The notes under the pieces: generated by a model
The model's database searches: none
Told to the model about the DNA's origin: nothing
What the model saw: only the letters and a program-made list of their open reading frames with translations
In this document: one piece after another, positions 38 to 122 of the stretch
Layout: each line of letters starts with the position of its first letter
Numbering within the stretch: position 1 is the first letter of the stretch
Position numbers and translations under genes: made by a program
From: Escherichia coli
Lineage (GTDB): Bacteria; Pseudomonadota; Gammaproteobacteria; Enterobacterales; Enterobacteriaceae
DNA length: 431 nucleotides
NCBI RefSeq assembly: GCF_003334765.1
Contig: NZ_QOWT01000124.1
Reading direction: 5' to 3' (one strand)

Positions 38-73
38 GCCTGATGCGACGCTGTCGCGTCTTATCAGGCCTAC
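38..73 (-). repeat. REP element, Z2-like type, with 3' CTAC on the + strand (GTAG at 5' on the - strand)
   Basis: gcctgat-gc-gacgc-tgtc-gcgtc-tt-atcaggc-ctac: 7-bp outer stem (38-44 with 63-69), 2x2 internal loop, 5-bp inner stem (47-51 with 56-60), 4-nt loop, then CTAC (70-73). Near match to the Z2 palindromic-unit consensus GCCTGATGCGACGCTGGCGCGTCTTATCAGGCCTAC as I recall it. Confidence 0.85.
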
Positions 74-88
74 AACTATTGCCGACCT
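74..88. other. 15-nt tail-to-tail linker between CTAC of the Z2-like REP and GTAG of the next Y-like REP (also at 166-180, 258-272, 350-364)
   Basis: aactattgccgacct recurs identically in every unit. It sits between the CTAC and GTAG ends, consistent with the longer inter-unit motif of BIME-2 clusters; the 7-nt head-to-head linker aatcaat is at 31-37, 123-129, 215-221, 307-313 and 399-405. Confidence 0.6.
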
Positions 89-122
89 GTAGGCCGGATA
101 AGGCACTTGTGCCGCATCCGGC
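89..122 (+). repeat. REP element, Y-like type, with 5' GTAG
   Basis: gtag + gccggataaggcacttgtgccgcatccggc. Imperfect palindrome with outer and inner stems as in copy 1. Closely resembles the reverse complement of the classical E. coli REP consensus (GCCGGATGCGGCG...CGCCTTATCCGGCCTAC), recalled from memory. Confidence 0.85.

Follow-up and report, generated by a model that had tools for sequence, protein, structure and literature searches.

Tandem BIME-2 arrays with strain-variable copy number, as well as models of their amplification by RAYT, have already been published (PMC3333891, PMC2817692). By definition, BIME-2 consists of a REP and an inverted REP (iREP) split by a short S linker and flanked by s, l or r (PMC3333891, Ton-Hoang et al.), and the published lengths of the y and z2 REPs of E. 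coli are 35 and 37 nt (PMC8266576). The E. coli enzyme TnpA-REP (RAYT, RayT) needs GTAG 5' of the hairpin foot for both binding and cleavage (PMC3333891, PMC3479197). It binds only single-stranded REPs with a 5' GTAG and a stem mismatch (PMC3333891, PMC8266576) and cuts C|T in the neighbouring iREP (TGCC|TGAT, CC|TAC) or in the linker (PMC3333891). The K-12 array named REP299a-i in EcoCyc is described as lying "within an operon (rhaBAD)", at most 15 nt from the upstream gene (10.1101/2024.07.17.603846). Another array, REP325, acts as a partly Rho-dependent attenuator of the downstream gene and as a stabiliser of the upstream mRNA, REP effects in general being dependent on context (10.64898/2026.03.23.713779).

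The stretch of DNA analysed here (431 nt, hereafter the window) belongs to the long-known BIME-2 array that E. coli carries in its rhaBAD operon, between rhaA and rhaD. It matches 5213 of the 5426 complete E. coli genomes, and the top matches (99.5%) sit between rhaD and rhaA. None of the 5426 genomes matches the window at 100%, the nearest having 2 mismatches. The nearest array, that of strain FG31-1, is built of 6.4 units with 13 REPs and contains four consecutive identical units versus the five needed by the window; MG1655 has 4.4 units with 9 REPs and 95% unit identity at this rhaD-rhaA site. The window probably derives from a related strain whose array is slightly longer. In 11 of the 11 annotated records examined the array is extragenic, with the start of rhaD on one side and the stop of rhaA on the other. 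The genes rhaB, rhaA and rhaD are all on the strand opposite to the + strand of the window, and the + strand is thus antisense to the rhaBAD mRNA, while the array is transcribed within the operon. A literature search combining rhaA, rhaD and REP found nothing. REPs between rhaA and rhaD were reportedly noted by Moralejo et al. in 1993.

From end to end, the window consists of perfect tandem repeats with a period of 92 bp (4.7 copies, 100% identity). The order of elements in the unit is GTAG followed by a 30-nt imperfect palindrome (Y REP, GCCGGATAAGGCACTTGTGCCGCATCCGGC), 7 nt, a 32-nt imperfect palindrome followed by CTAC (inverted Z2 REP, its palindrome in the inverted orientation being GCCTGATGCGACGCTGTCGCGTCTTATCAGGC) and a 15-nt linker separating CTAC from the next GTAG (AACTATTGCCGACCT). 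The Y and Z2 elements alternate in orientation and are present in five copies each, the last Z2 being partial. If GTAG and the terminal A are included, the lengths are 35 nt for Y and 37 nt for Z2. Compared with the MG1655 REPtron, the window Y is identical to the crystallised y REP at 27 of 32 positions and the window Z2 to the z2 iREP at 34 of 36. The features of the window are as follows.

Positions 1..431, no strand assigned: part of the BIME-2 tandem array, period 92 bp, 4.7 perfect copies.
Positions 38..122, no strand assigned: doublet of Z2 iREP, CTAC, 15-nt linker, GTAG and Y REP, the junction of two consecutive BIME-2 units.
Positions 1..30, + strand: palindrome of Y REP copy 1, its GTAG falling just outside the window.
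Positions 89..122, + strand: Y REP copy 2, with GTAG at 89-92 and the palindrome at 93-122 (7-bp lower stem, AA/GC bulge, GGCA/TGCC upper stem).
Positions 181..214, + strand: Y REP copy 3 with 5' GTAG.
Positions 273..306, + strand: Y REP copy 4 with 5' GTAG.
Positions 365..398, + strand: Y REP copy 5 with 5' GTAG.
Positions 38..73, - strand: Z2 REP copy 1, palindrome at 38-69, GTAG-first on the - strand and thus an iREP ending with CTAC (70-73) on the + strand.
Positions 130..165, - strand: Z2 REP copy 2.
Positions 222..257, - strand: Z2 REP copy 3.
Positions 314..349, - strand: Z2 REP copy 4.
Positions 406..431, - strand: Z2 REP copy 5, interrupted by the window end.
Positions 74..88, also 166-180, 258-272 and 350-364, no strand assigned: the 15-nt linker, in the s/l/r "flanking" position of BIME-2, with CT at 76 and 87 on the + strand.
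Positions 31..37, also 123-129, 215-221, 307-313 and 399-405, no strand assigned: the S-position linker AATCAAT (7 nt), joining the non-GTAG ends of Y and Z2.
Positions 37..44, also from 129, 221, 313 and 405, + strand: TGCC|TGAT, equal to the "iREP I" cleavage motif of TnpA-REP (PMC3333891).
Positions 67..74, also from 159, 251 and 343, + strand: GGCC|TACA, equal to the "iREP II" cleavage motif overlapping CTAC (PMC3333891).
Positions 88-95, 180-187, 272-279 and 364-371, - strand: mirror GGCC|TACA sites.
Positions 92..162, also 184-254 and 276-346, + strand: match to Rfam naRNA4 (RF02564) in the Y-S-Z2 phase, 76.6 bits versus the gathering score of 59.5.

A first-pass annotation of this DNA had singled out the doublet at 38-122 as a Z2-like REP joined to a Y-like REP by CTAC, 15 nt and GTAG. 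Both the coordinates and the REP types proved to be exact. The pattern CTAC-N15-GTAG begins at 70, 162, 254 and 346, i.e. 4 times versus 0.00 expected from 200 dinucleotide-preserving shuffles, and these four occurrences are not independent, because the doublet recurs as a consequence of the perfect 92-bp tandem repetition of the whole window. The same annotation took GTAG beside the palindrome for the recognition signature of RAYT, which agrees with the published biochemistry (PMC3333891, PMC3479197); the signature is kept in both REP types of the window. GTAG is found directly 5' of the hairpin in Y on the + strand (89, 181, 273 and 365) and in Z2 on the - strand. In the folds of single Y and Z2 elements the 7-bp lower stem is followed by a 2x2 internal loop formed by the AA/GC mismatch. 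The window contains five TGCC|TGAT motifs, four GGCC|TACA motifs per strand and the linker CT dinucleotides at 76 and 87. Judging from the sequence, all determinants used by TnpA-REP in vitro are present on both strands of the window.

The gene of the enzyme is common in the species: rayT is present in 3575 of the 5426 complete E. coli genomes (66%), which is close to the 74 of 110 genomes reported for tnpA-REP in 2012 (PMC3333891). The first-pass annotation had suggested a search for a RAYT gene flanked by the same REPs. FG31-1 has rayT, and in MG1655 the gene has Y-13nt-Z2 next to it on one side and Z2-CTAC-17nt-GTAG-Y-13nt-Z2-17nt-Y next to it on the other. The Z2-to-Y doublets in these flanks share the design of the window doublet, and their 17-nt linker (AAACTTGTGCCGGATCG) resembles the 15-nt linker of the window.

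The spacings in the window fit the positions defined for BIME-2, with 7 nt between the non-GTAG ends and 15 nt from CTAC to GTAG. An inverted REP pair with a short spacer can be read in both phases, Z2-15nt-Y and Y-7nt-Z2. Y-short linker-Z2 is the usual BIME-2 unit, and the same order is seen in the naRNA4 model of Rfam and in the REPtron's 5' BIME. The edges of the rha arrays favour neither phase, since these arrays start and end with Y, and the choice of Z2-linker-Y as "the" unit is arbitrary. In the convention of Gilson and Bachellier the CTAC end is said to be the tail. Nunvar 2010 names GTAG the "head", and the label "tail-to-tail" given to the doublet thus depends on the convention. Of the REPIN-like character proposed in the first-pass annotation, the inverted pair and the RAYT signature stand; the tail-to-tail phase is arbitrary.

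The 43-nt junction of two units occurs at a median of 2 and a maximum of 7 places per genome, in a search that gave the position of the best place only in each genome. In K-12-type genomes the 2 places agree in number with the two rha junctions of MG1655 that would be able to seed megablast. The exact linker pattern gave 0 matches in the representative genomes of 100,044 species, a result that bears on the chosen representatives only and not on E. coli carrier strains. The exact doublet with this linker therefore looks specific to the rha array. The broader class of Z2-to-Y doublets is dispersed: at least 158 doublets were found in at least 120 loci (Citrobacter, E. albertii, Pseudocitrobacter and others). 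Among the 120 loci listed, 101 contain a single doublet and 19 contain tandem copies, the commonest linker length is 15 nt and none is the rha locus. With rayT common and the class dispersed, neither of the two observations named beforehand as contradicting a RAYT connection, the lack of a RAYT gene and the lack of dispersed doublets, was made.

Variation of the array in the species was followed by the insert size, i.e. the distance between the 1-kb flanks used as a joined query, in 60 rows taken at regular intervals from the ranked list of 5403 matching genomes. The insert was 41 bp in 12 of the 60 sampled rows, 133-135 bp in 10, 225 bp in 7, 317 bp in 1, 409 bp in 12 and 593 bp in 1, so that sizes of 41 + 92n bp account for 43 of 60. 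A divergent flank class shows a parallel series of 235, 327 and 419 bp (the 327-bp size is from the query combining rayT and the flanks). In the 11 strains parsed, the number of REPs at rhaA-rhaD was 1, 3, 5, 7, 9 or 13, and every array had a Y REP in the same orientation at both edges. The general form of the rha array is Y + n x (S - Z2 - 15-nt linker - Y).

Inserts of 225, 317 and 409 bp occur behind flanks with identical scores, which means that some of the size changes are recent. Alleles with a single Y are found in several flank classes, consistent with repeated collapse by Y-Y recombination. A linker family, AACT[AG]TTGC[CT]GACC[CT], is common to distant flank classes. Taken together, these observations agree with an old array going through cycles of collapse and re-expansion and not with repeated fresh insertions.

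We consider it quite probable that the window is an internal piece of the rhaA-rhaD BIME-2 array and the doublet an inter-unit junction, that the array changes its size mainly through homology, that it has a role in the rhaBAD transcript similar to that of REP325 and that its DNA is a gyrase site. The array would have been seeded once, before E. coli diversified, because one linker family spans distant flank classes. Later growth and shrinkage would proceed mainly through the homology between the 92-bp direct repeats, by replication slippage or by unequal sister-strand exchange. RayT would not be required for the change in size but may contribute. Loss of 5 of 6 tandem copies at another BIME-2 in a wild-type mutation-accumulation line (PMC8049555) provides a precedent.

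The main alternative is that RayT itself drives the tandem expansion: it would bind the single-stranded GTAG-REP, cut C|T in the iREP (CC|TAC) or in the linker and add units by strand transfer or by a rolling-circle-like synthesis, as in the models of Figure 7 of Ton-Hoang 2012 and of Nunvar 2010. All the in-vitro determinants are found on both strands; TnpA-REP cleaves and recombines BIMEs in vitro and makes products with extra REPs (PMC3333891), and the strain with the nearest array (FG31-1, 13 REPs) has an intact rayT. Under stress, REP299 DNA is also shielded from exonuclease, an effect tentatively put down by the authors to binding of RayT (10.1101/2024.07.17.603846). The array size and the rayT status were compared by a query of rayT and the rha flanks in 59 genomes, with kinship ignored and rayT inferred from the number of matching places per record. 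Arrays of at least 2 units were found in 21 of 35 rayT-positive and in 6 of 24 rayT-negative genomes. This excess points in the direction that involvement of RayT predicts, but it is confounded by phylogeny (clade B1 is without rayT) and we give it no weight. Moreover, a single flank class has arrays of 235, 327 and 419 bp in rayT-negative genomes, i.e. multi-unit arrays of different sizes exist without rayT, and slippage or unequal exchange therefore suffices to explain the change in copy number, although RayT may contribute. It is also possible that the loss of RayT is more recent than the size differences. The number of REPs does not follow the presence of tnpA-REP (PMC3333891), no circular DNA or intermediates were detected for REP299 or other arrays (10.1101/2024.07.17.603846), and TnpA-REP is a monomer with an auto-inhibiting C-terminus and is not known to be active in vivo (PMC3479197). 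Slippage and RayT-catalysed recombination between equivalent sites lead to the same clean 92-bp steps and are therefore indistinguishable here. The literature does not point to a requirement for RayT, and RayT-catalysed recombination is live but unproven. Expansion driven by RayT is thus possible but rather doubtful; the link to RAYT proposed in the first-pass annotation holds at the level of sequence, and RAYT as the driver of expansion was overstated there.

A related and less probable possibility, which we regard as unlikely, is that the Z2-15nt-Y doublet is itself a REPIN transposing as a hairpin, the rha array being a local pile-up of this mobile unit. In its favour, the pair is inverted and its spacer is short, Z2-to-Y doublets as a class occur scattered over several enterobacterial genomes (mostly as single doublets and with 15 nt as the commonest linker), and RAREFAN classed REP299 as a RAYT-associated REPIN (10.1101/2024.07.17.603846). 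The minimum-energy fold of the 85-nt doublet as single-stranded DNA (-23.3 kcal/mol, z = -4.8) includes pairing between the two REPs. However, this long hairpin has no advantage in stability over two separate REP hairpins, which form the centroid fold (-23.1 kcal/mol), and the Y-S-Z2 phase, that of the BIME nomenclature, of Rfam and of the 5' side of the REPtron, folds slightly better (-24.9 kcal/mol). The number of exact junctions in K-12-type genomes is the same as that of the matching junctions in the rha array, which gives no indication of a further copy, and the representative genomes of the 100,044 species gave no match to the exact linker. In addition, what varies among the rha alleles of the 11 strains is the copy number and not whether a doublet with target-site features is present. 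The perfect 4.7-copy repetition could be thought to be an assembly artefact, perfect tandem repeats being prone to misassembly and a 100% match being lacking among the 5426 complete genomes, or else a chance arrangement. Chance is excluded by the shuffles (0.00 expected versus 4), and the complete genome of FG31-1 has 4 consecutive identical units at this very site, so that one further identical unit is enough to give the window; as many as 7 exact junctions are present in a single genome. This explanation is hardly credible. It is also highly improbable that each unit is a gene for an naRNA4-like nucleoid-associated sRNA working with HU, despite the RF02564 matches on the + strand listed above. 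RF02564 was built on a BIME-2 unit, so that any Y-S-Z2 unit matches it, and the matching strand is antisense to rhaBAD, the mRNA-sense strand reaching only 53.2 bits, under the gathering score. No promoter or intrinsic terminator consensus was found in or around the array, and REP325/naRNA4 causes no measurable nucleoid compaction (10.64898/2026.03.23.713779). The sRNA gene was therefore rejected, the match being a by-product of REP homology.

Under the preferred reading of a homology-driven BIME-2 array, its role is to be sought in the rhaBAD transcript and in the DNA itself. In the transcript the array of hairpins would act like REP325, shielding the upstream rhaBA message from 3' decay and attenuating the read-through into rhaD. 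By this analogy, the array would most likely favour rhaBA over rhaD. REPs located at most 15 nt from the upstream gene have been reported to lower its translation (10.1101/2024.07.17.603846), and the distance of the last Y REP from the rhaA stop codon (4-5 nt) falls inside this range. At the DNA level, PMC10592627 describes BIME-2 elements as gyrase targets (citing Espeli and Boccard 1997), the class being known to be bound and cleaved by the enzyme, and as candidate topological barriers; by analogy with these, the DNA of the rha array is a probable gyrase site.

A bolder proposal is that the count of Y-Z2 units, with arrays ranging from 1 to at least 13 REPs, serves as a heritable fast dial of the rhaBA:rhaD ratio, acting via attenuation and mRNA protection, that RayT raises the rate of 92-bp gains in vivo and that the unusually uniform run of at least 5 units is the record of a very recent burst of this kind. 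We put it forward as speculation that is more probably wrong than right by a wide measure. As it stands, the finding is a re-identification of a textbook E. coli repeat class at a catalogued site and adds nothing new to it. The locus may nevertheless be useful: one operon with 1 to 13 REPs in otherwise similar strains, with or without rayT, is a handy natural test case. It bears on the effect of RayT on BIME copy number in vivo and on the tuning of intra-operon expression by array length.

Comparison with the known systems places the window as follows. With the subterminal hairpins of the IS200/IS605 family (IS608, ISDra2) it shares an imperfect hairpin and a 5' tetranucleotide guide, which an HUH Y1 enzyme recognises in single-stranded DNA. 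In contrast to these elements, there is no transposase gene between the hairpins of the window, and TnpA-REP differs from the IS200/IS605 enzymes in being a monomer and in needing only CT at the cut site (PMC3479197). The likeness to the REPIN-RAYT system (Bertels and Rainey 2011) and to the REPtron with its TnpA-REP (Nunvar 2010; Ton-Hoang 2012; Messing 2012) lies in the REP pairs, which are inverted and closely spaced, in the imperfect hairpin preceded by 5' GTAG and interrupted by the AA/GC bulge, in the C|T motifs and in a rayT gene that is present in one copy and has these REPs on its flanks. REPINs were defined on doublets from Pseudomonas, where the two REPs are near-identical, form one long hairpin and are mostly single. 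Unlike in Pseudomonas, the window pairs REPs of two different types, Y and Z2; one long hairpin gains nothing in stability here over two short ones, and the doublets are arranged in tandem with an arbitrary phase.

REP325/naRNA4 (RF02564, yjdM-yjdN operon) resembles the rha array in being a tandem Y-S-Z2 repeat inside an operon near the upstream stop codon. The locus is different, the S linker of the rha array is 6 nt shorter than that of the RF02564 consensus and the model-sense strand is antisense to the operon; the role of attenuator and stabiliser was measured for REP325 only, that of the rha array being proposed by analogy. The closest relative of the window is BIME-2 of the Gilson/Bachellier/Hofnung class and, within it, REP299a-i. 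Here the likeness extends to the alternating Y and Z2, to the short linker at the non-GTAG ends and the second linker at the GTAG/CTAC ends, as well as to the extragenic tandem copies, well conserved per locus and variable in number between strains, at the same chromosomal site. The window differs from REP299 in copy number and a few bases only, and has at least 5 consecutive identical Y copies.

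The rhaA-rhaD array contains 5, 7 or 9 REPs in genomes whose 2-kb flanks score identically to K-12, represented by the following genome hits and their rha-locus records:

H59, strain CV601, locus L009
H63, strain MB06021, locus L010
H58, K-12 type, locus L002

Such a range of sizes within identically scoring flanks implies very recent gain or loss of 92-bp units. The variation is not confined to copy number, since in the allele of strain A25 (L013, ~1010–1022) the S-position linker aatcaat is replaced by one of 13 nt (atttgagcaggat); linker replacement thus occurs as well. Ton-Hoang et al. 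(PMC3333891) explain variation of this kind by recombination in which the sites are non-equivalent.

Across copies of the Y REP, a compensatory series is seen in the upper stem (window 103–114 and the equivalent positions in the arrays of L001, L002, L007 and L008):

GGCG...CGCC, edge copies and single-copy alleles
GGCG...TGCC, first Y of YZ_2_1, where the + strand has a G.T pair and the mRNA strand would have A.C
GGCA...TGCC, interior copies and all Y REPs of the window

Array size was compared with the status of the RAYT transposase gene (rayT) in 59 genomes by a single query combining rayT and the rha flanks. Arrays of at least two units were found in 21 of the 35 rayT-positive genomes versus 6 of the 24 rayT-negative ones, a statistic that ignores phylogeny. 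rayT is absent from the B1-like flank classes, in which the 133-bp and 200-bp alleles are found. The wastewater isolate CUWW06 (hit H290) matched the combined query in its rayT part only, the rha flanks not being found. BW25113 (H100) matched 34% of the flank query, on the rhaM/rhaD side only and with no match on the rhaA side, which fits the engineered rhaBAD deletion of this strain.

At its rhaA edge the array comes very close to the coding region: in FG31-1, the strain with the closest array, the last Y REP lies 4–5 nt from the rhaA stop codon (TAA, − strand; L001 3580–3590), and the arrangement in MG1655 is the same (L002 ~2715–2726). Reduced translation of the upstream gene is reported for REPs whose distance to a stop codon is below 16 nt (PMC12306157, citing Liang 2015), and REP299 is named among the stop-codon-proximal cases in a 2024 preprint (10.1101/2024.07.17.603846).

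In some strains, among them 2013C-4538 (L014 127–1275) and hits H99, H288 and H289, rhaM and rhaD are separated by an extra gene annotated as fucO (lactaldehyde reductase). In 2013C-4538, the only one of them parsed, the rhaD-rhaA spacer holds a single, slightly divergent Y REP. Elsewhere in its genome, FG31-1 harbors an island between yafT and tRNA-Asp (L004 22274–49530). It starts with an integrase gene and continues with genes for a DNA methyltransferase, a DEAD/DEAH helicase, a GIY-YIG nuclease and a 1650-aa AAA-domain protein. Toxin-antitoxin genes of the CbtA/YeeU type come next, and the whole has the look of a defence island.

The allele of strain F247 (L006 985–1160), of the 200-bp class, is devoid of Z2-Y units and has a single Y REP. 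This REP adjoins an unrelated GC-rich palindromic repeat of ~160–176 bp (ccctcaccctaaccctctcccc...ggggagagggccggggtgaggg), for which no matching family was found in Rfam. In 787 genomes a match covers at least 80% of the repeat; 4461 genomes have it at 3–6 places each. This repeat may resemble the "box C" repeats of E. coli.
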